Positions 1,524 to 27,023 of a stretch of DNA of 32,000 nucleotides are shown piece after piece. The position numbers and the translations under genes are program-made. The stretch lies in contig NZ_LWLG01000005.1 in the NCBI RefSeq assembly GCF_001652585.1, positions 60,001-92,000 of the forward strand, read 5' to 3'. The stretch comes from Thermosulfurimonas dismutans. GTDB taxonomy: Bacteria > Desulfobacterota > Thermodesulfobacteria > Thermodesulfobacteriales > Thermodesulfobacteriaceae. Under the pieces are notes generated by a model, which saw nothing but the letters and a program-made list of their open reading frames with translations, searched no databases and was not told where the DNA came from. How positions within the stretch are numbered: the first letter of the stretch is position 1; each line of letters begins with the position of its first letter.

Positions 1524-1527
1524 CCTT

Positions 1528-1764
1528 TTAAAAGTTCACTAACCTTAAAGCCTTCCTCAAAATCACCAGGGCATCGCCGATGGTGATCCGGCCATCGGGA
1601 TGGGGTTTCCCATCCTCCCCTAGAGGAGCCACGTCCGCATGGCACTTATCCTCATCGCTTGGTGTCTCAAGCCCTAAAGCAAACCGCAGGGCCACCAGGG
1701 CGTCTCCGATATTGACCTGACCATCACGGTTCCCCAGCGGAGCTACGTCGCCGTCAGGAGTGCA
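1528..1764 (-). other. Dockerin-like module D1 (C-terminal)
   Basis: CTPDGDVAPLGNRDGQVNIGDALVALRFALGLETPSDEDKCHADVAPLGEDGKPHPDGRITIGDALVILRKALRLVNF. Two DG-x-(V/I)-x-IGDAL-helix segments resemble the duplicated Ca-binding segments of type I dockerins. Confidence 0.75.
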
Positions 1765-4700
1765 GGTAGCTTTTCTTCTGGCAAGCACAAAGACCGGATC
1801 AATCTCTCCGTTCTGGTCGCAGCACAGAGTGACCCTCAAGGTATGTTCGTTTAGCTGTTCATAGGACACTTCCCGCCAATCGGGAAGCTTATAAAGATGG
1901 AATTCTCCGGTTATTTCCCTCTCTACAGTTACCTCGAAATCGTAACATTGTCCGGGATTTCCGGTGGCGGTAACAATAAAGGCCTCGGATTCTTGAAGAT
2001 CCACTTCCGGAGGTGCCTCTTGTAAATCTACGGTCGGATCGTTTACGGGATTAGATATAACCCGTGACTCCTGAACTTGAACCTCTGAAGGGGCTTTAAT
2101 CCCGGTAACCACGATATAATTCTCTCTGCGAACCTCATCCCGATAAAGCTCGTCGGCGGTATCATAAGAAGTTCCGTTATAGACCCTGAGGACCACGGAA
2201 TAGACTCCCGGTGATAGGTAATCACAGGTGGGTTCCCACACCTGGGTAGGATTATGTAAGATTTCGAAGTTTCCGTCTCCGTCACAATCCAGATCGTAAT
2301 GCCATTCGTAACTTTCCCCAGGACAAGTTCTCCAAGAAGTGTTTGTTAGATCAAAAAAGACTTCTAGCGGTGCCGGCCCGGAGGTGAAGAGAGCGGTAAT
2401 CTGCGCCTCCGTTGGTCCACAGACCGCTAATTCTTGGGGCAGAGAGGCTTCCACTTCATTGCCCACCGCATCGCGCACCCGCAGCCGGGGACGATATATT
2501 CCCGAACGAGTGTAAGTATATGGATACTCTCGAATCTGGCCAGGAAGGACGCTTTCCTCGTACTGTCCATCTCCATCGAAATCCAACATATACGTATAAG
2601 GTGGAACTCCGCCGGAAACACTTATCTCAAAGAACACCTCAAAAGGAGCTTCCCCTTGATAAACATTTCCCAGAATATCCAGAGTGGCATTCAACGAAGA
2701 AACCGGAGGTCCGATTTCAAAAAGCCCATAGTGAGTCAGGATCACATAAGTTCCCGCACCAGAAGGAAATATCCTTAACCCTTCCTCTTCCCGGTCGGGA
2801 CGGCCGAAAATCTCCTCCCAGAGAAGGGTTCCATTGGCGTCAGTTCGAATAATCCATACATCTCTATCATTCACAAAATCAAGAGTCCCCACGAAGAGAA
2901 AGCCTCCGTCTGCGGTTTGAATACCATCGTTAATCCATCCTTCATGTGCCTGTCTGGTTCCGTTATCATGAGCATGTATCTCGTATCTCTGGGTTCTCAA
3001 AACCCTACCGGTCTCCAGGTCGAATTCCAGAAATACCGGCTGAATATCACTAGAGCCCAAGCGACCATCATGAAAACCTCCAACAGCTACTACTGTATCT
3101 CCGAGTTTGTAAGCCCAGGTAAGAAAATTCCCGTAGTATCCGCTTCCCAAATTATCCTGTTGCCACAGGACCTCACCGTTCTCGTCTACCATCATGGCCA
3201 GAGCCCAGGATTGAGAGTTAAAGGCGCGCCAGAAGGGAGGATCTGACACACCTTTACAGCCCACCAAAAAGAGTTTCTTTTCTCCGTTATCTTCCAAGGG
3301 AAGTAGATAGTAAAAAGCGGATTTTCGATCCATTTCGTAAGTGTAATTGCCAACCTCTTCCCCCTGAAGATTCAGGTGGATGAGCCAGGGTCTGGCATTA
3401 CCACCCTGAGCTAAAGACTCCGTGATTCCTCCGATGAGATATCCTTCATCACCTATTTCTTCAATCTTCAATCCTGCTTCTCTATTATCTCCGCCCAGAA
3501 GCTTCTCCCATACCACTTGAGCCCGGTCATCTATCTTAAGAACCCATATATCGTGGTCCCCCAACCTCATAGGGGTTCCCAGAATTACATATCCACCGTC
3601 CGGAGCCTTTATAATGTCCCGCCCAAAGCTGGCATACCAACCTGTAGTCGGCACATCCAGACTTTCAGGATACAAGCGGATAAGCCCCCAAAGACTTCCA
3701 TCCTCCCGATAGACAGGATTGCCGTACCGATCAATCTTAGCTACGCACAATCTAGAGCTGTTTGGTTCGGTTCTACTTCCCGTAAGCACCCAGCCTCCAT
3801 CCTCGTCCGGTATCATGGCGCGAAGGACATCGCAGTAGAAATTTCTTCCGTCATAAGTTCGCTCCCAACGGAGCGCCATAGGGCTTATTTTGACTTCCCG
3901 GCTAAAGGTATCTTCCAGACTTTCGTTATCGGTGACGGTGAGCGTTACCGTGTAATTCCCCGGTACCGTAAAACGATGTTTTACCCGTACTCCTTCCGCC
4001 GTGTTCCCGTCTCCAAAATCCCAGAGATAAGATACGATCTGACCATCGGGATCATAAGAGTCACCCGCGGAAAAGGTAACCTCTTCATCCACGATCGGCT
4101 GATCCGGAGTATAAGAAAACCTGGCCATAGGATAAATCGGATTGTAATCTCCACGCAGTTTGATTACCCAGGCTTTGGTTCCTACCTGATCGCCCGAAAA
4201 GCCACTAACTTCTCCCAGCACAAGGTAATGGCCGTCGTGGGTTTTTATAATATCCTTTCCTTTCTCAATCTTTCCCCCGTCGTAAATCAGCTCCCACACT
4301 TTTTCCCCATTACCGCTTATTTTAAGAAGCCACAAATCTTTATTGGCCCATGTTCCCACTACCAGAAACCCTCCGTCTTCCGTTTCCACGATGCCGGCTC
4401 CAAAACTTCTGGTCTCGTTTTCTCCGAAGGTCTTTTCCCACAAGATCCGGCCCGAGGAGTCTAAACGAGCAACCACGAGAGCCAGTTTCCCGTTTAAGGT
4501 CTCCTTGACTCCCACCGCGGCATAACCGCCTGTGGAAACAGAAATGATTTGATAATACGAGGCATTGCCTGCAGTTTGAGCCGTAGAGAAATCATCGTTT
4601 AATATGTGTATTCGTTCCTCTGTAGCTATTATCAGTCTATTTTGAGAGAGAAGAAAGTCTTTGGCGGGAGCCCCAAAATTTCTCAAAAGCTGAAAATCTC

Positions 4701-5355
4701 CCCGAGGTCCACCTTGATTATCTTTTTCTATAAAAGTGAGTAAACCTTCAGATGCAGGATTCAGACCCCCGGTTGAAAAGCCCCCTATTAGGTAATAACC
4801 GTTAAAAATTTCGATAACTTTTGTGCCCCAGGTGTGCAGGTCTCCTTGTTTGAAAGACTTTTCCCAGATCTTTTCTCCGGCCGGATCGGTCTTAAGAAAC
4901 CAGAGGGCCGCCTCTCTCAGATTATCTCCTACCAGGAGATAACCCGATCCATCACTAGCGGGAGTTACAAAATAAAAGCAATTCCCTCTTTCATTCATAT
5001 TCACATAATTAAAATCCTCAGGTTCATAACTTCTTATAAAGACCAAATTTCCGTTTTCGTTAATTTTAGCTAAAACCCCCCGGGTACCCGTGCTAACAAA
5101 GCCTACATCAAAACCAGTTATCAAATAGTAATAGTTTCCATTTTCAAAGCTCTCAGCCAGTTTCTCGGGATAAAAGCCCCTAAATGAAGATACCCCTTCT
5201 GGTACAGGTGGAGAATCAAGGAGTATTCCCCACAAACTACCCGGCGGAGAGAGGTAAAATTCCCTTTCGGTCTGTGCGAAAATATCTATAGGACGAAAAT
5301 AGAACAAAAACCAGAAGATTAAAAAAATAAGTATAAATTGGAAATTTTTACCCAT
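1528..5355 (-). CDS. Secreted 1275-aa protein: propeller-like repeats, one clear PKD domain plus two PKD-like segments, and a C-terminal dockerin-like module
   Basis: The ORF has a hydrophobic signal peptide (MGKNFQFILIFLIFWFLFYF...FAQ) and AGGAGGTG 5 nt upstream of the ATG. Units of the type DGG(F/Y)(L/V)xxG...D(I/L)W(L/V)(L/I)K(I/L/T)D..G..(V/L)WE recur at least 7 times. The PKD signature is YLWDFGDGNTAEG...GNYTVTLTVTDN. Two further PKD-like segments are present (LDFDGDGQYE, YDLDCDGDGNFE). Confidence 0.9.
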   Translation of the reverse strand: MGKNFQFILIFLIFWFLFYFRPIDIFAQTEREFYLSPPGSLWGILLDSPPVPEGVSSFRGFYPEKLAESFENGNYYYLITGFDVGFVSTGTRGVLAKINENGNLVFIRSYEPEDFNYVNMNERGNCFYFVTPASDGSGYLLVGDNLREAALWFLKTDPAGEKIWEKSFKQGDLHTWGTKVIEIFNGYYLIGGFSTGGLNPASEGLLTFIEKDNQGGPRGDFQLLRNFGAPAKDFLLSQNRLIIATEERIHILNDDFSTAQTAGNASYYQIISVSTGGYAAVGVKETLNGKLALVVARLDSSGRILWEKTFGENETRSFGAGIVETEDGGFLVVGTWANKDLWLLKISGNGEKVWELIYDGGKIEKGKDIIKTHDGHYLVLGEVSGFSGDQVGTKAWVIKLRGDYNPIYPMARFSYTPDQPIVDEEVTFSAGDSYDPDGQIVSYLWDFGDGNTAEGVRVKHRFTVPGNYTVTLTVTDNESLEDTFSREVKISPMALRWERTYDGRNFYCDVLRAMIPDEDGGWVLTGSRTEPNSSRLCVAKIDRYGNPVYREDGSLWGLIRLYPESLDVPTTGWYASFGRDIIKAPDGGYVILGTPMRLGDHDIWVLKIDDRAQVVWEKLLGGDNREAGLKIEEIGDEGYLIGGITESLAQGGNARPWLIHLNLQGEEVGNYTYEMDRKSAFYYLLPLEDNGEKKLFLVGCKGVSDPPFWRAFNSQSWALAMMVDENGEVLWQQDNLGSGYYGNFLTWAYKLGDTVVAVGGFHDGRLGSSDIQPVFLEFDLETGRVLRTQRYEIHAHDNGTRQAHEGWINDGIQTADGGFLFVGTLDFVNDRDVWIIRTDANGTLLWEEIFGRPDREEEGLRIFPSGAGTYVILTHYGLFEIGPPVSSLNATLDILGNVYQGEAPFEVFFEISVSGGVPPYTYMLDFDGDGQYEESVLPGQIREYPYTYTRSGIYRPRLRVRDAVGNEVEASLPQELAVCGPTEAQITALFTSGPAPLEVFFDLTNTSWRTCPGESYEWHYDLDCDGDGNFEILHNPTQVWEPTCDYLSPGVYSVVLRVYNGTSYDTADELYRDEVRRENYIVVTGIKAPSEVQVQESRVISNPVNDPTVDLQEAPPEVDLQESEAFIVTATGNPGQCYDFEVTVEREITGEFHLYKLPDWREVSYEQLNEHTLRVTLCCDQNGEIDPVFVLARRKATCTPDGDVAPLGNRDGQVNIGDALVALRFALGLETPSDEDKCHADVAPLGEDGKPHPDGRITIGDALVILRKALRLVNF

Positions 5356-5501: not shown

Positions 5502-6794
5502 TTACCAGCAGGGAAGGCGCCAGGCGTCGAGGTCGAGTCTCTTCTTCATGAAAGAGAATCCCACCTGGTTGGCGCGTGCGCAGAAGTCAGCAGGATCAAG
5601 TTCGTACTCCACTCCAAAGACTGCCTTCCCATTATTCACAAACGGTAAAAGCTTTTCGCACTCATTATAGGAAAAACACTCTTCATTAAGAGCCCAGTCG
5701 AAATAGGATTCCAGATCTGGTATCTGATCGAGATCGTTCTTGAGACCTACCGATAGACCTCTACGATGAGCTTCCTCAGCCAGCCAGCGATTATAGAGCA
5801 ATTGATCCTCATAGGTGAGAGGGAAACCACTATCGTTCTGATAAGCGTCCACGTTGTCCGGTTCCACTCCGTCGCATCCCTTCTCCACCGCCAGATCTAA
5901 ACGGGCTTTCATAATAGGGCCCAGCAGGTCAAGCCGCCTTATGTCGAGCCACCGTTCATCCGGCCAATCTTTTAAAGGTTTACCTAAAACCTCCTCCGAA
6001 AATTTGGAAGCGTCTGGACGCCATGGCTCATAAGTTCCGGCACTAAAATAACATATCACTTTCCGTCCCCGGCGATGGAGTTCCTGTATCACTTCCACCG
6101 GGGTTCCAAAAAGATCCACATCAAACATTTCTGCCTCTACCGAAGTATCTATCTCGCCGGTTAGTTGCCATTGCCATGTGGTTCCCGGAGCCGGTTTCCA
6201 GATCTCTTTTCCGGAACCGAAATCTATCAGGCCCAAAGCCTTTCGCAGAATCACCAGAGCATCACCGATGATGATTTGACCATCCGGATTCGGCTGCTGG
6301 TTTTTTCCCAGCGGGGCTACATCGGCGTGACACCGATCCTCCTCCGTCACTATCTCAAGCCCTAGGGCGAAGCGCAGGGCTAACACGGCGTCACCAATAT
6401 TTACCTGTCCGTCTCGTGATCCCTGTGGAGCCACATCGCCGTCGGGGATACATTCTGGCCCGTTTTTACACTCTCCAGCATAGGCCACATTTACTCCTGC
6501 CAGATGGGCCTCACAGGCATTGGCATAAGTTCGTCCATCGCACCCACAAACCGGATCATATACTTGAATACAGACTTCTGGAAGAGGAACACACGTTCCT
6601 GAACCACCACAACCCTCCTTCCGCCAGCAGAATTCACCTTTTTTACAATCCTGATTAGAAAAACAACCTGGGTATATTTCTTTACATCGCCCGGGAGTTA
6701 AAAGAAAACCCAAAATGACTAAACCACACAGAACAAGATTAGATAGGATCTGAGCAAAAATTCTATAACTATACGGTCCAGTCCTGATCCCCAT
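5502..6794 (-). CDS. GH114-type endo-alpha-1,4-polygalactosaminidase-like protein with an N-terminal Cys-rich/Kazal-like domain and an internal dockerin-like module
   Basis: The Kazal-like motif is CIQVYDPVCGCDGRTYANACEAHLAGVNVAYAGEC. The C-terminal 230 aa match the GH114 (PF03537) pattern I recognise: WQWQLTGEIDT...VDLF...KVICYFSAGTYEPWRPDA...WLDIR...RLDLAVEKGCDGVEPDNVDAYQNDSGFPLT...GLSVGLKNDLDQ...NEECFSYNEC. An N-terminal hydrophobic anchor or signal is present. Confidence 0.85.
   Translation of the reverse strand: MGIRTGPYSYRIFAQILSNLVLCGLVILGFLLTPGRCKEIYPGCFSNQDCKKGEFCWRKEGCGGSGTCVPLPEVCIQVYDPVCGCDGRTYANACEAHLAGVNVAYAGECKNGPECIPDGDVAPQGSRDGQVNIGDAVLALRFALGLEIVTEEDRCHADVAPLGKNQQPNPDGQIIIGDALVILRKALGLIDFGSGKEIWKPAPGTTWQWQLTGEIDTSVEAEMFDVDLFGTPVEVIQELHRRGRKVICYFSAGTYEPWRPDASKFSEEVLGKPLKDWPDERWLDIRRLDLLGPIMKARLDLAVEKGCDGVEPDNVDAYQNDSGFPLTYEDQLLYNRWLAEEAHRRGLSVGLKNDLDQIPDLESYFDWALNEECFSYNECEKLLPFVNNGKAVFGVEYELDPADFCARANQVGFSFMKKRLDLDAWRLPCW
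6219..6452 (-). other. Dockerin-like module D2 (internal, between the Kazal-like and GH114 domains)
   Basis: CIPDGDVAPQGSRDGQVNIGDAVLALRFALGLEIVTEEDRCHADVAPLGKNQQPNPDGQIIIGDALVILRKALGLIDF. Confidence 0.75.
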
Positions 6795-6819: not shown

Positions 6820-7056
6820 TTACCAGTTAACCAGTCCCAGAGCCTTTCTCAAGATTACCACCGCATCGCCAATGGTAATTTTACCGTCAGGCTGTGGCTT
6901 ACCATCCTGTCCAAGCGGAGCCACATCCGCATGGCACAAATCCTCATCCGAGGGCCTCTCAAGCCCCAGGGCGAACCGTAAGGCTACCAGGGCATCCCCG
7001 ATGTTCACCTGACCATCACGGTTACCCAGCGGGGCTACGTCACCGTCAGGGGTGCA
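6820..7056 (-). other. Dockerin-like module D3 (C-terminal)
   Basis: CTPDGDVAPLGNRDGQVNIGDALVALRFALGLERPSDEDLCHADVAPLGQDGKPQPDGKITIGDAVVILRKALGLVNW. Confidence 0.75.
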
Positions 7057-9390: not shown

Positions 9391-9617
9391 GTTATCAACC
9401 CCAATGCCTTCCGTAAAATTACTAGAGCGTCACCGATAGTTATCTGTCCATCCGGTGCCGGTACACCGTTTTCAATAGGAGCCACGTCCGCATGGCACTT
9501 ATCCTCATCGCTTGGTGTCTCAAGCCCTAAAGCAAACCGCAGGGCCACCAGGGCGTCCCCAATGTTCACCTGACCGTCACGGTTCCCCAACGGGGCCACG
9601 TCGCCGTCGGGGGTGCA
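9384..9617 (-). other. Dockerin-like module D4 (C-terminal)
   Basis: CTPDGDVAPLGNRDGQVNIGDALVALRFALGLETPSDEDKCHADVAPIENGVPAPDGQITIGDALVILRKALGLITW. Confidence 0.75.
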
Positions 9618-10868
9618 GTTCCCCCAACCGGGCCAAATGGCGGTATCTGTTTCGCTTATACGGAGGCGGAGCGTACGACCATCAGAAAGCTCGAAAGAAA
9701 CCGTCTCTCCCAGTGTTCCATTTAGAGAAATTTTCAAAGTGTTTAAATCTATAAAATCCGCCGAAACAGAAACTCCTGAAGGATACCTATACCGATAACT
9801 TCTGATAAGATCGGTGCCATTGGCCGGCACAAAATAAAAAGCATATGTCTGCCCTGAGCGTACCGGCAATTCTATATCGAAAGCATCAATCCTATAATAA
9901 GGAAATTCGAGACTACGAGTGTAAAATTCCCAGGAAAAATCTTTTGTCTCTCCGTCTATGTTAAAAATAGCTTCTACGGTATATTTCTCTCCCCATTCGA
10001 GTCTACTTTGAGGAAAAAGGGCAAATTCAAAAGCGGAAAATCTCCTGTTTGGATCAGAGGCTTCATCCATTAACAAAGTAGAAACCAAATTTCCCGCAGA
10101 ATCATAAAGGTTAAAGCTGAACATTTGTACGGTATTTACTTTGTAAGGATTGAATTGTACGGAAATCGGATATCCGCTTACGCTTCGATCCGGCAAAGGA
10201 TCAGGAAACTCTTCATAGAAGACCGGAGGAACGGTGTCTCCGGGAGGAGGCCATCTCACCACGAGAGGGTTATCGGTAGCCACGATTGAAGGATCTTTTC
10301 TGGTGCCCAAATCGTAAACATAATAAACGGTTCCTCTATCATCAATAGCTTTTCCGAAACCTATTTCGTCAAAGTAAAAAGATAAAAAACCAAAGCGATG
10401 GTATATGGCCGAAAAGAGATCGTCTATGGATTCCTGAAAATTTTCCTCCCCCCAGGATAAATTTTCCCCGATTGCTTTATAGTTATAGCCTGCGGCCGCA
10501 GCTCGATCGGCCGGAGTCACACCGGTAAAATAAGGAAGCCCGGGAGTTTCAGTGTGCCCTATGTCCTGGTTGGTGGCTATGTAGCGGGCATGAGACTCGG
10601 CAGCCTGCGTCAGGGCCTGATTTTCAGAAAAAGGAATCATACCCACCGAAGATCTCAAGGCGTTGAGATATTGGAGATAACTTCCATAAGCCTGGCGAGT
10701 AACACGAGAGGGTCCGTGAAAGAGCGGCCTTTGAAAAATTCTTTCTCGCCAACTCTCAACCCCCGCAAGGTCTCCGGAAAAACCGTGCTCCGGAAGGAAA
10801 GCCGCCCCCCATAAAATCAGTGCAAACCAAAAAACCTTACATAATTTGGGCCAGAGAGACTTTTTCAT
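9384..10868 (-). CDS. Secreted CAP/SCP-domain protein with an uncharacterised beta-rich middle region and C-terminal dockerin-like module
   Basis: Signal peptide MKKSLWPKLCKVFWFALILWGAAF. The CAP-like pattern is YLNALRSSVGMIPFSENQALTQAAESHARYIATNQDIGHTE...GENLSWGE. Confidence 0.85.
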   Translation of the reverse strand: MKKSLWPKLCKVFWFALILWGAAFLPEHGFSGDLAGVESWRERIFQRPLFHGPSRVTRQAYGSYLQYLNALRSSVGMIPFSENQALTQAAESHARYIATNQDIGHTETPGLPYFTGVTPADRAAAAGYNYKAIGENLSWGEENFQESIDDLFSAIYHRFGFLSFYFDEIGFGKAIDDRGTVYYVYDLGTRKDPSIVATDNPLVVRWPPPGDTVPPVFYEEFPDPLPDRSVSGYPISVQFNPYKVNTVQMFSFNLYDSAGNLVSTLLMDEASDPNRRFSAFEFALFPQSRLEWGEKYTVEAIFNIDGETKDFSWEFYTRSLEFPYYRIDAFDIELPVRSGQTYAFYFVPANGTDLIRSYRYRYPSGVSVSADFIDLNTLKISLNGTLGETVSFELSDGRTLRLRISETDTAIWPGWGNCTPDGDVAPLGNRDGQVNIGDALVALRFALGLETPSDEDKCHADVAPIENGVPAPDGQITIGDALVILRKALGLITW

Positions 10869-20000: not shown

Positions 20001-21510
20001 ACCTAGCAGTCATTGAATTACAACTACTATTGTAAATTGTATCTCCAGGGAGTTTTTTATATACATTTAGTCCTCCACTGTTTTGAATAGAAATTGCGGA
20101 AAGATCCTTTAGATAAGGAAATGAAATAGTTATAGAGCCATAAATTGCGTCACTACCCTTATTATTCGCATTTATATTAATTTTAACTAAATTTCCTTTT
20201 ATTACAGAAGTAGGGTATGTAATATTAGTAATTATTGGCCTTGGAGGATTTCCAAAAATCAAATTTTCAAATTTGTATTCATTTAAAAACTGAACTACTT
20301 CAGCATCAGATAAATGTAAATCTTCATTACATAGTACTTTAGAACTTTCCCAATAAATTTGAGCTAACACTGAAGGATTTCTTTTTAAAATCTTAGAAGT
20401 TATATAAATATATTCTGGAAAAAGCTTTTCCCGATCCCAAAAAAAAATTCCTCCAATATAACTACCGTTACCATATATTATATCTTTTACACCACTCCAA
20501 TCACAATATGAATTATATGCCAAATTGCAATCATATCTATCAAGAAGAACTAAATATTCATGCATATTTTTGCCAACATTATCGAAAAGACTTGACAACG
20601 ATTTTCTCCACAATCTATACGAAGTATTGTGTAGTTGATTTACCAATTCCCACAAAGAATTATATAAATGTACTAATTTTGCCAAATAAAATGCCGCGTC
20701 TGTTTGACACATAAAGGCCTGAGCATAAGAAATTGCAAATTTCATAAGTATAGGCATATTTTGATTCATAATAGCCGTAGCTGAATTTAAAGCATCAACA
20801 ACATCCCAAGCAGTTGCTAATACGGGACTAAAGACTGCTATAGAATCCGGTAAAATATTGAGATACTGTTTCCAAATTATTTCTCCTGCTACTGCAGCTA
20901 CATTTTTAGAAAGATTAGTTAATTTTCTATCTATAATAGTCTTTATTGCTGCAATTTGACTACCTATATCATGATGTATGTAAAGCAACGCATAAATTAT
21001 TCTATTTTGAGGACTTTTTTCATTTTTTATAACATAGAATACTTCCCAATAAATTATCTTTTCTTTCGTTATCAATTTACGATACTTATATTCTATTGTA
21101 ATTATTAAATACAACTTCTTAGGCAGATCTACAACAGAAAATGACAAAATTTGTGAAAAATTTATAAAAAATTTATTAGCTTCTGAAGCTGAATAAGACA
21201 ATCTAGGAATTATATCTCTACCGTTTTTATCTTTTATATAAAAGTAAACTGTGCCACTTTCAGGGGGAATTATTTTATAAAATCTTTTTAAAGAATTACC
21301 GTTATATATAACCAATCCATTAGACTCTACAGGATAAACATAACTACTAATAGATAAAGACGATGGCTCATATAAGTATGATATCAATGTCCAGGGTTCT
21401 ATTGGAGATTGTAAAGTTATAGAAAAAGCAGTACTAATTATTACATTCAAAACGAAAAAACTTAAAACAACTATTTTAGAAAAACTACATATCTTTAAAC
21501 TTTTTATCAT
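16807..21510 (-). CDS. 1567-aa scaffoldin-like surface protein: signal peptide, AT-rich-encoded N-terminal region, Fn3, four InlB-B-repeat-like beta modules, PKD, two tandem cohesin-like modules, C-terminal dockerin-like module
   Basis: Signal peptide MIKSLKICSFSKIVVLSFFVLNVIISTAFS. Fn3: PPSNPSLTATGGDARVTLSWSSVSD...GRTYYYRLCAIDNAGNVS. The repeats are of the type YTLSVSRTGSGTITSSPSGINCGSTCSASF...FTGWGGDCAGCG...CSVVMDGAKSCSAQFE. PKD: FQFGDGNNVTDYDGRVTHIYDKAGTYKARCVAKDDKG. Confidence 0.9.
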   Translation of the reverse strand: MIKSLKICSFSKIVVLSFFVLNVIISTAFSITLQSPIEPWTLISYLYEPSSLSISSYVYPVESNGLVIYNGNSLKRFYKIIPPESGTVYFYIKDKNGRDIIPRLSYSASEANKFFINFSQILSFSVVDLPKKLYLIITIEYKYRKLITKEKIIYWEVFYVIKNEKSPQNRIIYALLYIHHDIGSQIAAIKTIIDRKLTNLSKNVAAVAGEIIWKQYLNILPDSIAVFSPVLATAWDVVDALNSATAIMNQNMPILMKFAISYAQAFMCQTDAAFYLAKLVHLYNSLWELVNQLHNTSYRLWRKSLSSLFDNVGKNMHEYLVLLDRYDCNLAYNSYCDWSGVKDIIYGNGSYIGGIFFWDREKLFPEYIYITSKILKRNPSVLAQIYWESSKVLCNEDLHLSDAEVVQFLNEYKFENLIFGNPPRPIITNITYPTSVIKGNLVKININANNKGSDAIYGSITISFPYLKDLSAISIQNSGGLNVYKKLPGDTIYNSSCNSMTARYPMIEFGGQWKSGTTKTVTLLVDTSKLSPGNFKFYVRSTMTSVDDFWCHYKNYPQNSTTIDQQGWEVNSYSFKIVTKPPTGSILIENGALYTKSTSVVLNLNVYDDYTPIDQIQVCIKNSQTTCYPYDWKNFSNTKMWSLPSGDGNKCVYVKFRDSEGNISSWYHDCIILDTTPPSNPSLTATGGDARVTLSWSSVSDSRSGLKEFKLVYSTSGYPSSGCTSGTRLTLSSPIATSYTHTGLTNGRTYYYRLCAIDNAGNVSGGSTALAIPQVTRYTLSVSRTGSGTITSSPSGINCGSTCSASFDRGITVRLTAFPNIDSIFTGWGGDCAGCGSNATCSVVMDGAKSCSAQFELKKYMVTARVGNGKGTVEPLSQKVTHGGVARFTVTPDACYHVEGVDSTCGGTLSGNIFTTGQVTGNCSVVVNFGLNEYTIEAKAGVGGSISPSGNVTVECGGSQIFTIEPDKGYHVKDVVVDGVSKGAMTSYPFRDVKDNHIIEVIFERDRYRLSVSVEGGGGKIDCGGECYTDYDSGTKVTLKAIPDEGYSFAGWEGDCAECGNDRICPLVMDDSKSCTARFEPIQTQNQPPVIDLFSANPTSVEAPLSVEFVCTAHDPDGRIVEYTFQFGDGNNVTDYDGRVTHIYDKAGTYKARCVAKDDKGATAISNPLVIEVATTNQEPSCDAQHLNLCTTEADCVRAGGYWYNGSCHASPQSPSCENGVDTLILQNVYGHPGSEVVVPVILNGTSTTIGGISFTVTYNPAVLSFDRVEGARILQGGLITPYDNGSVVRIGIISATGISGSGEILRLIFRVNPISVAQTVVDLEIPQVEFANLEGNTFSGCGLGAKVYVDTNPIEVTMICSKEVNARKMFDIVFEIDTKNLTLGGLDLSLGFDAGLSAKGVTAVGLAQGATVQTNNSNLGSYRVGLIKASGFSGKGEVLKVTLEPGLDVTGEVTINISSIQGYDLTGTAVPIKVENGTCRVNVISCTPDGDVAPLGNRDGWVNIGDALVTLRFALGLETPTEEDRCHADVAPLGADGRPNPDGKITIGDALVILRKALGLVSWGYQ
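17053..17450 (-). other. Cohesin-like module 2 of the scaffoldin (class A)
   Basis: MFDIVFEIDTKNLTLGGLDLSLGFDAGLSAKGVTAVGLAQGATVQTNNSNLGSYRVGLIKASGFSGKGEVLKVTLEPG... Confidence 0.6.
17461..17851 (-). other. Cohesin-like module 1 of the scaffoldin (class A)
   Basis: VDTLILQNVYGHPGSEVVVPVILNGTSTTIGGISFTVTYNPAVLSFDRVEGARILQGGLITPYDNGSVVRIGIISATGISGSGEILRLIFRVNP. This is the closest of the modules to the classical cohesin pattern (G..V.VPV....., I.g.dF.v.Yd..vL....v..g, G.i.i......, G.I..i.F.V). Confidence 0.7.
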
Positions 21511-21762: not shown

Positions 21763-21789
21763 AATAGCGGGGGGCTTTGCGCCCCCCGC
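21759..21789 (-). terminator. Rho-independent terminator of the 923-aa gene
   Basis: On the minus strand the sequence reads GCGGGGGGC-gcaaa-GCCCCCCGC followed by TATTTTGG. The 9-bp all-G/C stem (21767-21775 / 21781-21789) begins 9 nt after the stop at 21798. Confidence 0.75.
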
Positions 21790-21797: not shown

Positions 21798-22175
21798 TTA
21801 CTGACAGGTAAATTCCACTATCTGTGCCGGACAAGCAAAAGTATTCCCGGAAAGATCCGAACAGGTAGCATTACCATCAGGAATAATTGCAAGCTCGCTC
21901 TCCTGAGGCTCACTACACAATCCCTGATTCTGAGGAGTTGAGAAGGTAAGCTTAAGCACCGCTGAGCCGTCCGCAGGAAATCCACCGGCTGAAATGAGCC
22001 CAATCTTCACATGGGTTCCATTATCATTGGGAACCACCAGTCCTCCCTGAGCCGCTCCAATAGCTACCACATTATCAAATCCAAGCGCAGTCTCTGGATA
22101 GTCCACGGTCACATCCACTCCTCCAATCGTACCATTGGCCGTAACCCCGAGCTTCAGTGTGCAGGTGTAAGCCTT
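21798..22175 (-). other. Cohesin-like module (class B, Cys-capped)
   Basis: KAYTCTLKLGVTANGTIGGVDVTVDYPETALGFDNVVAIGAAQGGLVVPNDNGTHVKIGLISAGGFPADGSAVLKLTFS...ACPAQIVEFTCQ. Confidence 0.55.
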
Positions 22176-24569
22176 GGGCTGAGTCACCCCGACCGAGGTC
22201 TGGCCGGACACACCATCCACCGTCACCCGCACCGTGGAATTCTGACTGCCGGCGGTAAGCGTCACCGCAGCCACCCCTACCTTATCTACATCGTTCCAGC
22301 CGATGGGAATGCTCACCTGGCTCAACACTCCATCACCCTGAGTCACCTCAAAAGCCGCATCTCCTATGGCATCCTTGTTAGTGCAGGAATCGAAATCAGC
22401 AAGGTGAATGGTGGCCTTGATGGTGGAGTTGCCCCCGGCGCACACGGTAGCAGGCTCGGCCCGCACATCAATTCCCGTAACCGTGCACGGATCCTGAGCC
22501 ACCTGAATGGCAACCTCGTTGGAAGTTTTGCCCTCAGAGGTGGCCTTCACCTTGACCTCACCCGGAGCGTTAACCGTGAGCGTGGTGCTAGCCTTACCGG
22601 TGGCATCGGTCTGAGCCGTAGGCGGATTCACGTACCCATCACCGCTCACTACCTCAAAGGTCACCTCTTTGCCCGAAAGATCGCCGCACTGCTCGGCATT
22701 AACCACCTGCACCTGAGCCATAAGTTGTGTGCTGTCTCCGGCCGTAAGAGAGGTTTTATTGGCGCTAAGCGTCACCCCCGTAACCGTACACGGATGTTCC
22801 GCCACCTGAATAGTAACCTCGTTGGAAGTCTTGCCCTCAGAGGTGGCCTTCACCTTGATCTCCCCCGGAGCATTGGCCGTAAGGGTGGTGCTGGCATTAC
22901 CACTAGCATCCGTCACCGTCGTGGCCGGGTTCACCGTCCCATCTCCGCTCACCACCTCAAAGGTCACCTGCTTTCCGGAAAGATCAGCACAGATATCCGG
23001 ATTGACTACTTCTACTTGGGCCGTGAGATTGGCACTCTCGCCCGCCACGACCGAAATAGGGGTGGCGTTAAGGCTTACCGCCTTAACCGCACACGGATCA
23101 GGGGCCACGTAAGACATAGCAACCCTACGATGTATTCCAGTGCAGGGATCCTCCACCAAAGCTACTAATTTAGCCATACCGGCTCCCTGAACTTCCAGTG
23201 GCGCTACCGCATATCCATCAGTATCAATATCTACTTCTATCTCCTTCTTTCCACCTGTGAAAGTAACCTGGCCTTTCACAATCTTAAATGTCACCTTTCC
23301 GGAAGGAGTGCCATTTCCGGAAAGCGGAGCTACCATGGCTTTCACTTTCCATTGATTAGTAGTTTGATCAAAATATATCCCAGCCATTGAAATCTCATCC
23401 ACACTATCAGCATTGCAAACCTTAATCAGCACGGGATTGGAGGTCCGGTTATCACTAGTTACAGCCGTAATCCTGAACACACTTCCCGCCGGAGCACTTC
23501 CGGCACATACTTGAGCGGAAGCTTCAGTAAGCGTATTACCCTGAACAGGATTGGGATTTATAGCAAGGGTGCCATTGGTGGCATTCCCTACAGGCATAGC
23601 GTCAAAAGCAATCTCACTTATCTGAGGCCCCTCTCCACATCCTATTACACCCGCGATTTTTGCCGTAAGTTTGCTACACACCTGTCCATCGGAAGAAATA
23701 ATTATCCTATCTCCCGAAAGACCTACAGCATAAGAACAATAATTCTGAAGTGTAGAGCCGATCTGATCCAAAATATTTGTATAATTACCTGAAATGGGGT
23801 TTCCGTTTACTTGCCCATCCATAACACCATCTTGGAGGTCCTGAAGAAGAGCTACAAACCCCTGCAACAACTTCTCCCACAGTGAAAGGAAATCCGTCTG
23901 AATCTGAAGGAGACGGCTTATGGCATCCGCCAGAACTCTATTATAAGGCGGCTCGTAATCCCTTATGCTAAAATGGTGCTCCGTAAAAAGTTTTTTGATA
24001 TATTCTTCTCTTTCGCTACCGAATTCCTCTCGAGCCCGTTCTCGGACGTGGTACACCAGTGTCCTTACGGGCTCAAATTCCGGATCGTTTTCAATTTGCG
24101 TAAAATTGTCACTATGTTTTTCCACTAGAGCACTGGTATCCACAGTAAGAAAGGCATAATATAGGGCACCTGAAATAATATCTGCCCCTTTGTGAACTAC
24201 ATTTCCATCTTCGTCCATAATAAACCCTTGGAGAGGAGGAGCCGCCAGAGTATCATTTCCGACCTGCATGGTACCGTTCTCACTCTTCAATGTAAGCCGA
24301 GTACAATTAGCTACCTCCACAGGATTTAGCTTGAACTGAAAATTTCCCTCCCCATCCGTTTGTCCGAGCTTCTTCAATTTCTTTCCGTCACACAGGAGCC
24401 ACACAGTAGCGTTAGCCACCGGGTCCTTACTCACACTTCCAACGACCGTGGCTCCAGAGGTGGTACCGGAAGTCTCCTCTCCGCCACCACCTCCACCACC
24501 TCCACAGGCCACAAGCAGCAAAGGAAGCACAAATACCCATAACCACAAACCCAACCTTCTCCAACTCAT
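21798..24569 (-). CDS. 923-aa lipoprotein with poly-Gly linker, helical/unknown region, three Big_1-like Ig domains and a C-terminal cohesin-like module (candidate anchoring scaffoldin)
   Basis: MSWRRLGLWLWVFVLPLLLVACGGGGGGGGEE carries the lipobox L-V-A-C. Ig-like repeats are of the type LSGKQVTFEVVSGDGTVNPATTVTDASGNASTTLTANAPGEIKVKATSEGKTSNEVTIQV. SD GAAGGGGG lies upstream of the ATG. Confidence 0.9.
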   Translation of the reverse strand: MSWRRLGLWLWVFVLPLLLVACGGGGGGGGEETSGTTSGATVVGSVSKDPVANATVWLLCDGKKLKKLGQTDGEGNFQFKLNPVEVANCTRLTLKSENGTMQVGNDTLAAPPLQGFIMDEDGNVVHKGADIISGALYYAFLTVDTSALVEKHSDNFTQIENDPEFEPVRTLVYHVRERAREEFGSEREEYIKKLFTEHHFSIRDYEPPYNRVLADAISRLLQIQTDFLSLWEKLLQGFVALLQDLQDGVMDGQVNGNPISGNYTNILDQIGSTLQNYCSYAVGLSGDRIIISSDGQVCSKLTAKIAGVIGCGEGPQISEIAFDAMPVGNATNGTLAINPNPVQGNTLTEASAQVCAGSAPAGSVFRITAVTSDNRTSNPVLIKVCNADSVDEISMAGIYFDQTTNQWKVKAMVAPLSGNGTPSGKVTFKIVKGQVTFTGGKKEIEVDIDTDGYAVAPLEVQGAGMAKLVALVEDPCTGIHRRVAMSYVAPDPCAVKAVSLNATPISVVAGESANLTAQVEVVNPDICADLSGKQVTFEVVSGDGTVNPATTVTDASGNASTTLTANAPGEIKVKATSEGKTSNEVTIQVAEHPCTVTGVTLSANKTSLTAGDSTQLMAQVQVVNAEQCGDLSGKEVTFEVVSGDGYVNPPTAQTDATGKASTTLTVNAPGEVKVKATSEGKTSNEVAIQVAQDPCTVTGIDVRAEPATVCAGGNSTIKATIHLADFDSCTNKDAIGDAAFEVTQGDGVLSQVSIPIGWNDVDKVGVAAVTLTAGSQNSTVRVTVDGVSGQTSVGVTQPKAYTCTLKLGVTANGTIGGVDVTVDYPETALGFDNVVAIGAAQGGLVVPNDNGTHVKIGLISAGGFPADGSAVLKLTFSTPQNQGLCSEPQESELAIIPDGNATCSDLSGNTFACPAQIVEFTCQ
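22500..23105 (-). repeat. Tandem 303-bp (101-codon) coding repeat, two copies, with a third more diverged copy at about 22197-22499
   Basis: CACCTGAAT(G/A)G(C/T)AACCTCGTTGGAAGT(T/C)TTGCCCTCAGAGGTGGCCTTCACCTTGA starts at both 22500 and 22803. Each unit encodes one Big_1-like Ig domain. Confidence 0.85.
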
Positions 24570-24671: not shown

Positions 24672-24905
24672 TCATGAAACCAATCCCAGGGCCATGCGCA
24701 GGATCACCAGGGCGTCGCCGATGGTGATCTTGCCATCCGGCTGGGGTGTTCCGTCCGCCGCAAGCGGGGCCACATCCGCGTGGCATTTGTCTTCCTCCGA
24801 AGGTGTCTCAAGCCCCAAGGCAAACCGCAGGGTCACCAGAGCGTCACCGATATTCACCTTTCCGTCCCGGGCACCCAGCGGGGCCACGTCCCCGTCCGGC
24901 GTGCA
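24672..24905 (-). other. Dockerin-like module D8 (C-terminal)
   Basis: CTPDGDVAPLGARDGKVNIGDALVTLRFALGLETPSEEDKCHADVAPLAADGTPQPDGKITIGDALVILRMALGLVS. Confidence 0.75.
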
Positions 24906-27023
24906 GAGAGGAGGAACGGGCACGGTGAAGTTCCACCGCTCGGACTGAACCGCCCCACCCTTCCCATCCGAAGCCTCCACATACCAGTAATAAGTAGTTC
25001 CATTCTCAAGATCGGCGATGGTGCAGGTGGTCTGCGTTATACCTATACATCCCACAACTGGATGAAAACTCTCCTCCCCCTGTCTGGCAAGAAAAACGGT
25101 ATATCTTACGGTGTCGTTTTCACTATCCAAAGAAGCCTGCCAGGAAAGGGTTACCGGGGCCGGGGTCTCACTTCCGGACTCAGGTGATATTAATGCCGGT
25201 GCGGAAGGGGGAGTATTGTCCTCAAAGGAGATCACTCCACCGTCGGTGGCGGCATACCACCGAGAGCCTATCTTCACCAGGTCGTAAAGAGTGTAGAGAT
25301 CATTTATAAAATATTGAAATCTCGTCCAGGTCTTTCCCCCGTCTTTGGACTGGTAAAGGCCGTTGTCGGTGCGAGCGAAAAATCGAGAAGGATCTTCAGG
25401 ATCAGGATATACCTTGTACACCTCCTGCACCCCAGCAAGACTTACTTTCTGAAAAGAACCAGTGTCCTGGTAATATATATAAAGACCATTTCGGGTGGAA
25501 ACGAAGGCCTTACCGGAGAAGAGCTGAATATCGTTTATATCCTTTATTCCGGTGTCTCGCCAGGTGCTACCGTTGTCGGAGGAAACAAAAAGATGTTTTT
25601 CATAATTCACACTGCTTACGGCATAAATTGTTCCCCGTTCCATGTCATAAGCCACCTCACTTACACTTCCGTCCGTTGGCCCGGATATGAACCCCCAAGT
25701 CTCCCCTCCGTCAGTGCTCATATAAATGCCATATCCCTGCCCCCCATCCCAGGAAGAAAGGTAACCCGCAACCCATATCTCAAGAGGATGATTTTTAGGA
25801 TCCGGAAAATAATAGTCGTAAAGGGAGCCTTTCCATATCACCGAACAGTTATCGAAATCGAGAGAACACCGACTGAAATGGGTGTACTCCGTCTCGTAAT
25901 AAGCGTAATCTCCCACCACGGTAAAAGTTTTGAAATCCTCATAAGGCCTTGCGGGTTCTTTAAAAAGTTCCCACCTTTTTTTCTTAAACGAGTACTTATA
26001 AATTCCCTTTCTATCAATATCAATTGTAGCCCAAAGGTCGCCAGAGGAATCCTTTTCTAAAAATTTAAGACTATATCCGGTGGCCACTCCATACTTTTGC
26101 CATGTATTTCCGCCATCGGTGGAAATTTCGAGATAGCCGTTCCTTCCGAGCCAGATAGTCTCTCCCCGTACCGCCACGGAATAAACCGCCTCCGGGGCGA
26201 TAAAGCTCCAGGTTTGGCCCTGATCGTCCGAACGATAAAGACCTCCACTGGTGGCCAGCCAGATATGCCCCTGGGAATCAATAACCGCATCGTTTACATA
26301 ATCCGAAAGACCGAGCTCCCGAAAACTTCCCCCGGTGTCCGTAGAGATGTAGCCCTTTCCCCCACCTATTACCAGAACTGGATTTCCGTTTCTCGCGGCG
26401 GAGATTTTTATTCCATCATACCAATCCTTGGGAAGCCCGGTTCCCACCTTCTCCCAGGAGAGCCCTCCGTCATCGGAACGATATAAACCCTCAGCTTCTA
26501 TATAAACATAAACTCGGTTATCATAGAAAGGAGAAAACCAAATATTTGAATAGTAATTTGAAATATTTAACACCTTTAAAAAATTTTTCCCTTCATCTTG
26601 TGAAAAATAAATTGCATCTCCTTCCAACCCAACTAAAATTTGAGATCCTTGAGCCTGAATGTCATAAATGTTTCCTTTAAATGTAAAAAGATCATACCAA
26701 TTTCGACCTCCATCTCCAGAAATCATTAAAATGCCATAATTACTACTATATAACCGATAAGGATCCTCCTGATCTACGGCAAGCGGAAGTCTTGTGGAGA
26801 CCCGCACAAAATGGCGACCGCCGTCGCGGCTCTGGTAAAGTACACCACCACAAATCACGTAAAGGAACGTACCGTTGGAGGATTCCGGAAGCAGGATTTC
26901 TACCCGGCCACAGGAGGTAACGACCAGGTCCTCACTTGGTCCCAGATGCTCCACCCCTTCCACCATTGCCATAAGAGGCGTAGACCAAATAAACAAGAGA
27001 AGGAAAGTCAAAAACATCCTCAA
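24672..27023 (-). CDS. Secreted BNR/Asp-box repeat beta-propeller protein with Fn3 domain and C-terminal dockerin-like module
   Basis: Signal peptide MRMFLTFLLLFIWSTPLMA. There are ten S-x-D-x-G-x-(T/S/N)-(W/F) Asp-boxes: SRDGGRHF, SGDGGRNW, SQDEGKNF, SDDGGLSW, STDTGGSF, SDDQGQTW, STDGGNTW, STDGGETW, SSDNGSTW, SKDGGKTW. Fn3: PAPVTLSWQASLDSENDTVRYTVF...GTTYYWYVEASDGKG. Confidence 0.9.
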   Translation of the reverse strand: MRMFLTFLLLFIWSTPLMAMVEGVEHLGPSEDLVVTSCGRVEILLPESSNGTFLYVICGGVLYQSRDGGRHFVRVSTRLPLAVDQEDPYRLYSSNYGILMISGDGGRNWYDLFTFKGNIYDIQAQGSQILVGLEGDAIYFSQDEGKNFLKVLNISNYYSNIWFSPFYDNRVYVYIEAEGLYRSDDGGLSWEKVGTGLPKDWYDGIKISAARNGNPVLVIGGGKGYISTDTGGSFRELGLSDYVNDAVIDSQGHIWLATSGGLYRSDDQGQTWSFIAPEAVYSVAVRGETIWLGRNGYLEISTDGGNTWQKYGVATGYSLKFLEKDSSGDLWATIDIDRKGIYKYSFKKKRWELFKEPARPYEDFKTFTVVGDYAYYETEYTHFSRCSLDFDNCSVIWKGSLYDYYFPDPKNHPLEIWVAGYLSSWDGGQGYGIYMSTDGGETWGFISGPTDGSVSEVAYDMERGTIYAVSSVNYEKHLFVSSDNGSTWRDTGIKDINDIQLFSGKAFVSTRNGLYIYYQDTGSFQKVSLAGVQEVYKVYPDPEDPSRFFARTDNGLYQSKDGGKTWTRFQYFINDLYTLYDLVKIGSRWYAATDGGVISFEDNTPPSAPALISPESGSETPAPVTLSWQASLDSENDTVRYTVFLARQGEESFHPVVGCIGITQTTCTIADLENGTTYYWYVEASDGKGGAVQSERWNFTVPVPPLCTPDGDVAPLGARDGKVNIGDALVTLRFALGLETPSEEDKCHADVAPLAADGTPQPDGKITIGDALVILRMALGLVS

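Follow-up and report, generated by a model that had tools for sequence, protein, structure and literature searches.

A cohesin–dockerin gene cluster with predicted lipoprotein anchors in the autotrophic thermophile Thermosulfurimonas dismutans

The genome of Thermosulfurimonas dismutans (assembly GCF_001652585.1) contains a cluster of ten long open reading frames (ORFs), TDIS_1035–1045, all on the minus strand, at positions 1528–27023 of the 32,000-nucleotide stretch analysed here (contig NZ_LWLG01000005.1, positions 60,001 to 92,000; the window). The encoded proteins comprise, in transcription order, 783, 923, 1567, 272, 876, 633, 494, 856, 430 and 1275 amino acids (aa), and all ten begin with an N-terminal hydrophobic export signal. 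The cluster shows dockerin and cohesin modules recognisable by fold and homology, lipoboxes on two of the cohesin carriers and purifying selection on the dockerins, and it probably constitutes a self-contained, non-cellulosomal cohesin–dockerin assembly for envelope-tethered adhesion and matrix remodelling. An earlier reading of the stretch, made from its letters alone (the sequence-only reading), had proposed a lipoprotein-anchored cohesin–dockerin surface assembly and given the cluster a length of 27 kb, which is corrected here to 25.5 kb.

Eight internally duplicated modules of 77–78 aa had been reported in the sequence-only reading, and this count is borne out by three approaches. The regular expression DG-x-[VI]-x-IGDA[LV][LV]-x-LR-x-AL-x-L has 16 matches, which fall in pairs on eight proteins; the eight modules align unambiguously, with 74–90% identity to the first one; and a six-frame scan of the whole window with hidden Markov models (HMMs) built from the window modules and their relatives returns exactly eight dockerin-type and four cohesin-type modules, and no further ones. 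The dockerin is C-terminal in the 1275-, 856-, 494-, 876-, 1567- and 783-aa proteins, internal in the 430-aa GH114 protein (residues 115–192) and N-terminal in the 633-aa protein, immediately past the signal peptide. The cysteine that opens the dockerin of the 633-aa protein (…GLALC) was considered as a lipobox and rejected, because the leucine at −1 is non-canonical and the same cysteine is internal in the other seven modules.

The identification as dockerins is clear at the level of the fold and borderline at the level of Pfam. Scanned in isolation, four of the eight modules reach 24.8, 26.5, 22.8 and 14.9 bits with Dockerin_1 (PF00404; cut-off 22.9 bits), while the full-length proteins give two sub-threshold matches only (17.8 and 20.6 bits). 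An AlphaFold2 model was calculated for the dockerin of the 1567-aa protein, the only dockerin modelled, from an alignment of 26 sequences (the eight window modules and 18 metagenomic homologs). It has a predicted score in the local distance difference test (pLDDT) of 92.7, with helices at residues 21–31, 39–45 and 64–74, and displays the duplicated F-hand, three-helix fold with internal two-fold symmetry of dockerins. When this model is compared with the PDB by Foldseek, the 17 best matches are all dockerin chains, with probabilities of 0.25–1.00 and target-normalised TM (template modelling) scores of 0.58–0.84; E-values are modest (best 7.5e-3), as expected for an 80-residue query.

Both halves of the module carry DVAP...DG-x-[VI]-x-IGDAL-V-x-LR-x-AL, i.e., a tandem loop-helix duplication. 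Read against the canonical 12-residue calcium loop D1-x-[DN]3-x-D5-G6-x-[IV]8-[DN]9-x-x-D12, with the helix Asp as the reference for counting backwards, N at position 3, D at 5, G at 6, V/I at 8, N/T at 9 and D at 12 fit in both halves, and calcium binding by the window dockerins is plausible. An invariant D-V-A-P motif 4–8 residues upstream indicates that the loop is extended; the window dockerins are a divergent subtype with extended loops. All eight copies also contain two cysteines, one at the start of the module and one in the inter-helix linker ('xCH[AG]DVAP'), and this Cys1–Cys41 pair suggests a stabilising disulfide clamp. In 82 metagenomic modules, the linker cysteine is never found without the N-terminal one, six modules carry both, and 11 carry the first only. 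The putative clamp is a minority variant overall that is apparently fixed in T. dismutans and Desulfothermus okinawensis. A subtle split separates the window dockerins further, as alignment columns 16 and 25 covary: Q16/A25 occurs in the 1275-, 430-, 856- and 494-aa proteins, encoded by the four downstream genes, and K16 or W16 with T25 in the 633-, 876-, 1567- and 783-aa proteins, encoded by the four upstream genes. Since the paralogous 856- and 876-aa proteins fall on opposite sides, the subtype tracks gene position and not the history of the protein body.

The dockerin copies share 68–80% identity in DNA versus 71–92% in protein. Six gap-free copies have a mean proportion of synonymous differences (pS) of 0.67, which is near saturation, and of nonsynonymous differences (pN) of 0.116, and the dN/dS ratio between copies is 0.02–0.16 where dS can be estimated. 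The near-saturated synonymous sites indicate that the dockerin sequence is held by purifying selection; for the same reason, recent gene conversion was rejected as the source of the likeness. The dockerins are old duplicates kept to a common sequence, as expected if they fit shared partners. Hardly any variation is seen among the eight copies in the putative binding helices, and the dockerins of the 1567- and 633-aa proteins share 92% identity. A hierarchy of anchor, adaptor and cargo, as drawn in the sequence-only reading, is not supported, because the dockerin of the proposed adaptor is of the same type as the cargo dockerins, with no split akin to that between types I and II. The near-invariant helices point instead to docking that is probably promiscuous within the set.

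The four cohesin-type modules were found where they had been proposed, two in tandem in the 1567-aa protein (Coh1 and Coh2) and one at the C-terminus of each lipobox protein. Coh1 is recognised by Pfam Cohesin (PF00963; cut-off 24.1 bits) with 33.3 bits in context and 40 bits in isolation. Coh2 and both lipoprotein modules have no Pfam match even at E≤10, and they are assigned by phmmer links, a profile match and, for the 272-aa protein module, a structural model. By phmmer, the cohesin of the 923-aa protein is linked to Coh1 (48–49 bits), to the 272-aa protein module (56 bits) and to Coh2 (30 bits). A profile of all four modules matches the Archaeoglobus fulgidus cohesin 2xdh with E=1.7e-9; in searches of the PDB with single modules, the matches are likewise cohesins, at E-values of 0.08–0.25 only. 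The cohesin of the 272-aa protein, the most divergent of the four and the only one modelled, yields an AlphaFold2 model with a pLDDT of 93.3 that forms a nine-stranded β jelly-roll, and the 23 PDB chains that Foldseek ranks highest for it are without exception cohesins, led by 2xdh (E=4.5e-5, TM 0.62). An exhaustive HMMER search of 1.84 billion representative proteins returned 361 relatives of the cohesin profile at E≤1e-3, and Pfam Cohesin is matched by 33 of the 46 sequences scanned (42 short hits and the four window modules). A word-indexed search with the four-cohesin alignment gave 2,453 candidates, none at E≤1e-3.

The 272- and 923-aa proteins are predicted lipoproteins (MKKILPFYLALLLILVAC and MSWRRLGLWLWVFVLPLLLVAC), each with a single C-terminal cohesin. 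Read by hand, their N-termini, MKK-ILPFYLALLLI-LVAC-GGG and MSWRR-LGLWLWVFVLPLL-LVAC-GGGG, combine a charged n-region, a hydrophobic h-region and a lipobox of the form [LVI][ASTVI][GAS]C near residues 15–25, which is the pattern of signal peptidase II substrates. The canonical lipoboxes noticed earlier (…LILVAC-GGG and …LLLVAC-GGGG) are thus confirmed, and both proteins are predicted to be lipidated and may be located at the outer surface. A lipobox as such reveals neither the membrane nor the leaflet in which a protein resides. The full 272-aa frame is conserved elsewhere too: versions in assemblies from other samples have 13–14 substitutions and an unchanged lipobox region. Public annotation shortens this protein to its last 142 aa ('hypothetical/cohesin domain'), and the lipobox is missing from the deposited form. 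The Big_1 Ig-like domains of the 923-aa protein show weak similarity to intimin, and its cohesin is placed at the distal end; a word-indexed homolog search with this anchor retrieved only the protein itself. Proteins with both lipobox and cohesin recur among the library matches (P0101, P0111, P0127, P0140 and P0150), and P0111 has the same N-terminal plan as the 923-aa protein.

The description of the 1567-aa protein as an adaptor holds with respect to architecture, which is Coh1-Coh2-dockerin at the C-terminal end. Over ~220 aa, its Coh2-dockerin unit shares 48–50% identity with cohesin–dockerin units in at least six metagenomic β-propeller proteins, in which the two modules are also directly fused; metagenomic units overall are 42–50% identical to it. 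The cohesin precedes the dockerin in L023, L050, L051, L052, L067 and L069, and follows it in L045. In these fusions, several of which are PQQ-like β-propellers, Cys-rich MopE-like repeats are often found after the DVAP dockerin. The linker-less cohesin–dockerin unit may be a mobile self-assembly cassette, possibly for head-to-tail assembly. The gene for the 1567-aa protein is a compositional mosaic: codons 1–600 (19711–21510) have a G+C content of 0.25–0.31 and a third-position G+C of 0.17–0.20, while the remainder of the gene has 0.40–0.56 and the genome 0.50. The frame stays open through the AT-rich stretch, which indicates that it is coding. The encoded ~600-aa region matches no family and looks like a recently grafted foreign part; the DNA of D. 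okinawensis has 32–37% G+C, but no homology to the AT-rich region was found there.

The one clear enzyme among the dockerin-bearing proteins is the 430-aa protein, a predicted α-1,4-polygalactosaminidase (named 'endo alpha-1,4 polygalactosaminidase' by NCBI) whose GH114 domain matches PF03537 over its full length (positions 1–231 of 231) with 301.6 bits. The GH114 enzyme Ega3 cleaves galactosaminogalactan (GAG) and Pel (PMC10485009). The T. dismutans protein is deposited both as a 430-aa and as a 328-aa form, the latter without the signal, the Kazal-like module and part of the dockerin. The cargo named in the sequence-only reading (GH114, a CAP domain, a BNR propeller and PKD domains) was recovered, together with fn3 domains and InlB B-repeats, and the stated absence of plant-cell-wall enzymes was upheld: in Pfam and NCBIfam scans of all proteins, GH114 is the sole carbohydrate-active enzyme and no carbohydrate-binding module (CBM) is found. 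The cluster thus lacks the plant-cell-wall enzymes and the scaffoldin CBM that define a cellulosome sensu stricto. The propeller of the 783-aa protein is similar to the NCBIfam F510_1955-family glycosylhydrolases (125 bits, under that family's cut-off); the true start of this protein is perhaps an ATG two codons in. Two statements needed revision. The seven dockerin proteins described as otherwise unrelated include a pair of paralogs, the 856- and 876-aa proteins, with 70% identity over 854 aa. These two had been called HExxH peptidases, and although the motif is present and conserved between them (HELAHALDH and HESAHTFDH), neither has a match in Pfam, NCBIfam or the PDB sequences.

The dockerin subtype is spread well beyond T. 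dismutans. A word-indexed dockerin query retrieved short fragments only (53–129 aa), and a scan of a genome collection with very narrow peptide patterns yielded only five loci, none of them from T. dismutans itself; 236 metagenomic relatives were confirmed by tblastn, and the subtype also occurs in metagenome-assembled genomes of Thermodesulfobacteriota. Cohesins are found in nine of 83 related loci (seven of the nine metagenomic; many contigs are short), often in the same protein as the dockerin, and 47 metagenomic carriers of the subtype contain PKD, PMP repeats, β-helices, propellers and S8/C13 peptidases. One locus, L073, repeats the order of dockerin gene, Big-domain protein with C-terminal cohesin and small cohesin protein. 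The vent sulfate reducer D. okinawensis JCM 13304 (L001, 2311–3213), which appears only distantly related to T. dismutans, has a Cys-pair dockerin with 82% identity on a protein with InlB repeats and PKD that is 41% identical over 143 aa to the middle of the 1567-aa protein. It also encodes a Cys-rich cohesin protein, P0206, the closest non-self relative of the lipoprotein cohesins. This distribution hints at an exchange of cohesin and dockerin modules among vent thermophiles.

The packing of the genes had been taken as a sign of expression as a unit. The overlaps named in support are present (ATGA at 16807–16810, 7 nt at 9384–9390 and 32 nt at 10837–10868), the last one between gene 7 (494 aa) and a doubtful 110-aa ORF with a GTG start (10837–11169). 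Gaps of 25–150 bp had been claimed, and gaps of 102, 46, 76, 25 and 146 bp occur, but so do gaps of 287 and 468 bp. The 468-bp spacer (10869–11336), between the genes for the 633- and 494-aa proteins, contains nothing except the 110-aa ORF and is filled only if this ORF, which has neither a signal peptide nor a family match, counts as a gene; an Rfam scan of the spacer was empty. The spacer may represent a gene, a promoter region or a remnant. As for the single clear internal terminator of the sequence-only reading, one good hairpin does exist just after the gene for the 923-aa protein, but terminator motifs overall are no more frequent than in shuffled controls, and the same holds for promoter motifs in the window. 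Rfam and tRNA scans of the whole window were also empty. One shared strand and two coupled overlaps are indirect signs of a single transcript, and the cluster may be co-transcribed.

These features fit a model in which Sec would export all ten proteins and the 272- and 923-aa proteins would be lipidated at Cys+1, each presenting its cohesin at the tip of a long tether, which in the former is a disordered linker of ~125 aa and in the latter an intimin-like Big_1 stalk. The divergent duplicated dockerin on each of eight proteins would plug, presumably in a Ca2+-dependent manner and probably without strict preference, into the four cohesins. Because the 1567-aa protein holds two cohesins and a dockerin, it could multiply the docking sites or chain onto itself. 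The cargo set and the autotrophic host favour envelope-tethered adhesion and the remodelling of a putative galactosamine-rich (Pel/GAG-like) matrix over polymer feeding, and this would be the best-supported role of the system.

Several observations weigh against this interpretation. Two of the four isolated dockerin modules stay below the Pfam cut-off, and comparisons of dockerin profiles with the dockerin sequences of the PDB were not significant (E 0.76–1.1). The Asp at loop position 1 is replaced by Leu or Arg and the loops carry insertions of 4–8 residues, so the calcium chemistry may differ. The lipobox cysteine is absent from L073 (802 aa, 36% identity), the closest relative of the 923-aa protein, and from the Desulfothermus protein P0206, which indicates that lipid anchoring is not conserved in these cohesin subfamilies. 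The 287-bp gap with its terminator-like hairpin and the 468-bp gap speak against one transcript. Finally, the host is diderm, which leaves surface exposure unproven, and Gly at +2 of the lipobox would also agree with a position facing the periplasm.

A complex facing the periplasm, in which the lipoproteins sit at the inner membrane or in the inner leaflet of the outer membrane and organise periplasmic enzymes, e.g., for exopolysaccharide processing as in the case of PelA, is unlikely on balance. It would agree with a Gram-negative host, with the presence of Sec-type signals only and no outer-membrane export system or surface-exposure signal in the window, with the best NCBIfam neighbour of the CAP domain, a divisome-associated lipoprotein (weak, 36.7 bits), and with the frequent occurrence of dockerins on solute-binding proteins of ABC transporters in anaerobic methanotrophic archaea (ANME; PMC9012536). 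However, a Big_1 stalk like those of intimin and invasin and large, adhesin-like cargo (up to 1567 aa, with PKD, fn3, InlB repeats and propellers) are typical of surface-projecting proteins, and the PMP repeats, β-helices and S8 peptidases of the metagenomic relatives are typical of extracellular ones. In another reading, proteins with both modules, such as the 1567-aa protein, would join head-to-tail into an extracellular network that is the main product, cross-links cells or matrix and is only tied to the cell by the lipoproteins. That the dockerin of the 1567-aa protein is of the cargo type, that Coh2-dockerin is a conserved cassette in at least six metagenomic β-propeller proteins and that adhesin or aggregate-forming roles have been proposed for such proteins in sulfate-reducing bacteria (SRB) and ANME make a network possible, though rather unlikely as the principal function: most dockerin proteins of the window have no cohesin, recognition of their own dockerin type by Coh1 and Coh2 is putative, and the direct fusion of Coh2 to the dockerin could give an intramolecular, self-occupied state.

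A nutritional 'degradosome' would scavenge proteins or polysaccharides in the manner of cellulosomes, amylosomes and the Cloacimonadota complex. GH114, the two HExxH-motif proteins and the BNR propeller with its resemblance to a glycosylhydrolase family could be read in this way, and a precedent has been proposed for Candidatus (Ca.) Stygibacter (PMC8542988). Yet the HExxH proteins match no peptidase family, only one of the eight dockerin proteins is a clear enzyme, the cluster has no CBM, transporter, or sugar- or peptide-uptake genes, and the host needs no carbon source other than CO2, all of which renders feeding improbable. It is more improbable still that the 78-aa module does not bind cohesins at all and acts as a Ca2+- or glycan-binding, stabilising or sorting tag beside which the cohesins are located incidentally. 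The weak sequence similarity to characterised dockerins, the non-canonical calcium loops and the lack of a cohesin in 74 of the 83 related loci (although many contigs are short) would be in line with such a tag. Against it stand the specificity of the fold match for dockerins, the strong enrichment of cohesins beside the module, and fused to it, in unrelated organisms, the co-occurrence of a Cys-pair dockerin and a Cys-rich cohesin in D. okinawensis, and the strong purifying selection on the helix pair with which known dockerins contact their cohesins.

An assembly for envelope-tethered adhesion and matrix remodelling is therefore preferred, and a bolder version of it can be formulated, which is offered as a speculation with a doubtful chance of being correct. 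The lipoprotein cohesins and the linker-less, disulfide-clamped cohesin–dockerin cassette would then mark a class of its own among the envelope or matrix scaffolds of diderm anaerobes, one that is thermostable, self-assembling and widespread, if mostly in metagenomes. Its members would chain head-to-tail into cell-to-cell or cell-to-mineral networks instead of organising enzymes, and would position a Pel/GAG-type hydrolase for matrix remodelling.

The features of the cluster and its surroundings are compiled in Table 1. A small GC hairpin (1506–1521) is located just beyond the stop codon of the last cluster gene (1275 aa). The DNA further downstream (window positions 1–1527) has a higher G+C content of ~0.54 and contains only two ORFs, 159–581 (+) and 1030–1374 (−), neither of which has a Pfam match. 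An insertion sequence (27276–28325) lies ~250 bp upstream of the first cluster gene; it is bounded by 39-nt imperfect inverted repeats (27276–27314 and 28287–28325, 74% complementary) and encodes a 292-aa transposase with helix-turn-helix and rve domains on the plus strand. This element separates the cluster from two more genes for secreted proteins, both without a dockerin, of 407 and 787 aa. The two proteins are weakly similar in their C-terminal regions (22% over 227 aa, E=1.5e-6), and it is possible that their genes are part of the cluster's adhesion island, cut off from it by the insertion sequence.

Table 1. Genes, modules and other features of the T. dismutans cluster and its upstream neighbourhood (window coordinates)
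Feature	Position	Strand	Basis
Gene 1, 783 aa: signal peptide, BNR/sortilin-type β-propeller, fn3, C-terminal dockerin	24672..27023	−	Pfam Sortilin-Vps10 77 bits, BNR, fn3
Dockerin of 783-aa protein, subtype K16/T25	24675..24905	−	Pfam Dockerin_1 22.8 bits, isolated module
Gene 2, 923 aa, TDIS_1045: lipobox, Gly-rich linker, CarboxypepD_reg-like domain, helical region, Big_1 Ig-like stalk, C-terminal cohesin	21798..24569	−	Pfam Big_1 60.8 bits; NCBI names
Lipobox L-V-A-C (Cys22) of 923-aa protein, followed by GGGGGGGG	24504..24515	−	Read from translation
Cohesin of 923-aa lipoprotein	21801..22196	−	phmmer to other modules; custom cohesin HMM 98 bits
Terminator-like GC hairpin with T-rich tail, in 287-bp gap after gene 2	21770–21787	−	Motif match only
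Gene 3, 1567 aa, TDIS_1044: signal peptide, ~600-aa AT-rich N-terminal region, fn3, three InlB B-repeats, PKD, Coh1, Coh2, dockerin	16807..21510	−	Pfam Flg_new_2 109.7, PKD_4 53, Cohesin 33.3, fn3 31.7 bits
Coh1 of 1567-aa protein	17440..17832	−	Pfam Cohesin 40 bits, isolated; custom HMM 104 bits
Coh2 of 1567-aa protein, no linker to dockerin	17053..17430	−	30 bits to 923-aa protein cohesin; custom HMM 101 bits
Dockerin of 1567-aa protein, subtype W16/T25	16819..17052	−	AlphaFold2 model and Foldseek
Gene 4, 272 aa from ATG at 16810, ATGA overlap with gene 3: predicted lipoprotein, ~125-aa Gly/Ser/Glu-rich tether, C-terminal cohesin	15992..16810	−	Sequence
Lipobox L-V-A-C (Cys18) of 272-aa protein, followed by GGG	16757..16768	−	Read from translation
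Cohesin of 272-aa lipoprotein	15995..16387	−	AlphaFold2 model and Foldseek
Gene 5, 876 aa: secreted, no assigned family, HESAHTFDH, C-terminal dockerin (13318–13551)	13315..15945	−	Paralog of gene 8
Gene 6, 633 aa: signal peptide, N-terminal dockerin (12927–13160), unassigned C-terminal region	11337..13238	−	Pfam Dockerin_1 26.5 bits, isolated; NCBI 'dockerin type I repeat-containing protein'
Gene 7, 494 aa: CAP/SCP domain, C-terminal dockerin (9387–9617)	9384..10868	−	Pfam CAP 40.2 bits
Gene 8, 856 aa: HELAHALDH, C-terminal dockerin (6823–7056), 7-nt overlap with gene 7	6820..9390	−	Paralog of gene 5
Gene 9, 430 aa, TDIS_1036: N-terminal hydrophobic segment, Kazal-like Cys-rich module, internal dockerin (6219–6452), GH114 domain (5520–6179)	5502..6794	−	Pfam Glyco_hydro_114 301.6, Kazal_1 23.9 bits
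Gene 10, 1275 aa: signal peptide, SBBP-like β-propeller repeats, PKD, further Ig-like regions, C-terminal dockerin (1531–1764)	1528..5355	−	Pfam PKD_4 103 bits; weak NCBIfam SBBP-lipoprotein similarity
Secreted protein, 407 aa	28336–29559	−	No family match
Secreted protein, 787 aa, two WSC domains and PAN domain	29616–31979	−	Family scan

The pairing of cohesins with dockerins is well understood for cellulosomes and less so for the many non-cellulolytic bacteria and archaea with such modules, most of which are uncultured (ANME, syntrophic SRB, candidate phyla). The cluster overturns no current view; its value lies in the small number of modules, four cohesins and eight dockerins, in a thermophile that is cultured and sequenced and in which pairings, anchoring, localisation and mutant phenotype are directly testable. 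The thermostable, apparently disulfide-stapled dockerin subtype may moreover serve the engineering of protein assemblies. T. dismutans, a Gram-negative thermophile cultivated at 65 °C, disproportionates sulfur and grows on CO2 as its only source of carbon; genes with predicted signal peptides number only 86 in its genome, whose G+C content is 50.1% (PMC4911364). Neither of the two Thermosulfurimonas genome papers mentions cohesins or dockerins, although some of the window proteins are already named dockerin- or cohesin-containing by NCBI and UniRef.

The clostridial cellulosome (Acetivibrio thermocellus CipA; SdbA, OlpB) resembles the T. dismutans system in its duplicated F-hand dockerins on many secreted proteins, its cohesins on non-catalytic carriers, one of which has its own dockerin, and its clustered genes. 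In contrast, the T. dismutans cluster encodes no cellulases, hemicellulases or CBM and only four cohesins, its anchors are predicted lipoproteins rather than SLH (S-layer homology) or sortase proteins, it has one dockerin type and no type I/II hierarchy, its dockerin loops are extended and putatively disulfide-clamped, and its host is a diderm autotroph. Outside cellulosomes, cohesins and dockerins reportedly occur in all three domains of life (Peer et al. 2009, as cited in PMC8542988 and PMC9012536). The closest single match of the window cohesins, by profile and by structure, is 2xdh of A. fulgidus, a thermophilic, non-cellulolytic, sulfur-metabolising organism of hot marine settings like T. 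dismutans; the A. fulgidus pair is archaeal, however, and involves few genes. A cluster of many genes that combines lipoprotein anchors with eight dockerin carriers is not known for A. fulgidus from the work of Bayer (1999), Peer (2009) and Voronov-Goldman (2011).

The reuse of cohesin–dockerin pairs beyond plant-cell-wall enzymes is shared with the Ruminococcus bromii amylosome, with Ca. Stygibacter and with Clostridium perfringens, whose cohesin-like modules 2jh2, 2w1n and 2vo8 are among the best structural matches of the window cohesin. The R. bromii amylosome is not known to use lipoproteins as anchors. In Ca. Stygibacter (Cloacimonadota), which is Gram-negative like T. dismutans, the cellulosome-like complex has been proposed to be anchored differently, via the C-terminal domain of the type IX secretion system (T9SS; PMC8542988). 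Unlike the T. dismutans set, all three systems have mainly hydrolytic cargo, for nutrition or virulence, and canonical dockerins that score in Pfam.

Comparable by description are the clusters of syntrophic SRB and ANME, which include thermophilic relatives within the Thermodesulfobacteriota/Desulfobacterota. In the SRB, cohesin/dockerin 'adhesins' are reported to have been acquired together with pel genes, both being tied to aggregate formation, and high expression of such clusters was reported in ANME-SRB consortia; HotSeep-1 (Ca. Desulfofervidus) has a highly expressed eight-gene cluster, AMM40420–AMM40427, beside an Ig-like protein (PMC10553843). Comparable gene sets exist in ANME, where many dockerin carriers belong to ABC transporters as solute-binding proteins (PMC9012536). 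These clusters share with that of T. dismutans the multi-gene cohesin–dockerin arrangement beside an Ig-like protein, a dockerin-sialidase/BNR protein and a proposed non-nutritional role in adhesion or matrix (PMC10553843; PMC9012536). The reports give domains and expression, but no anchors, module anatomy or binding model, and the SRB authors held that relatives without a syntrophic lifestyle lack these genes, yet T. dismutans was isolated as a free-living organism. The novelty of the cluster was overrated in the sequence-only reading, since non-cellulosomal cohesin–dockerin clusters had already been reported in syntrophic SRB, ANME and Cloacimonadota. A natural cohesin protein with a lipobox was not found described in the literature searched. 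What T. dismutans adds to the known systems are the predicted lipoprotein anchors, the DVAP dockerin subtype with its putative disulfide clamp, the GH114 cargo and a free-living, culturable autotroph as host.

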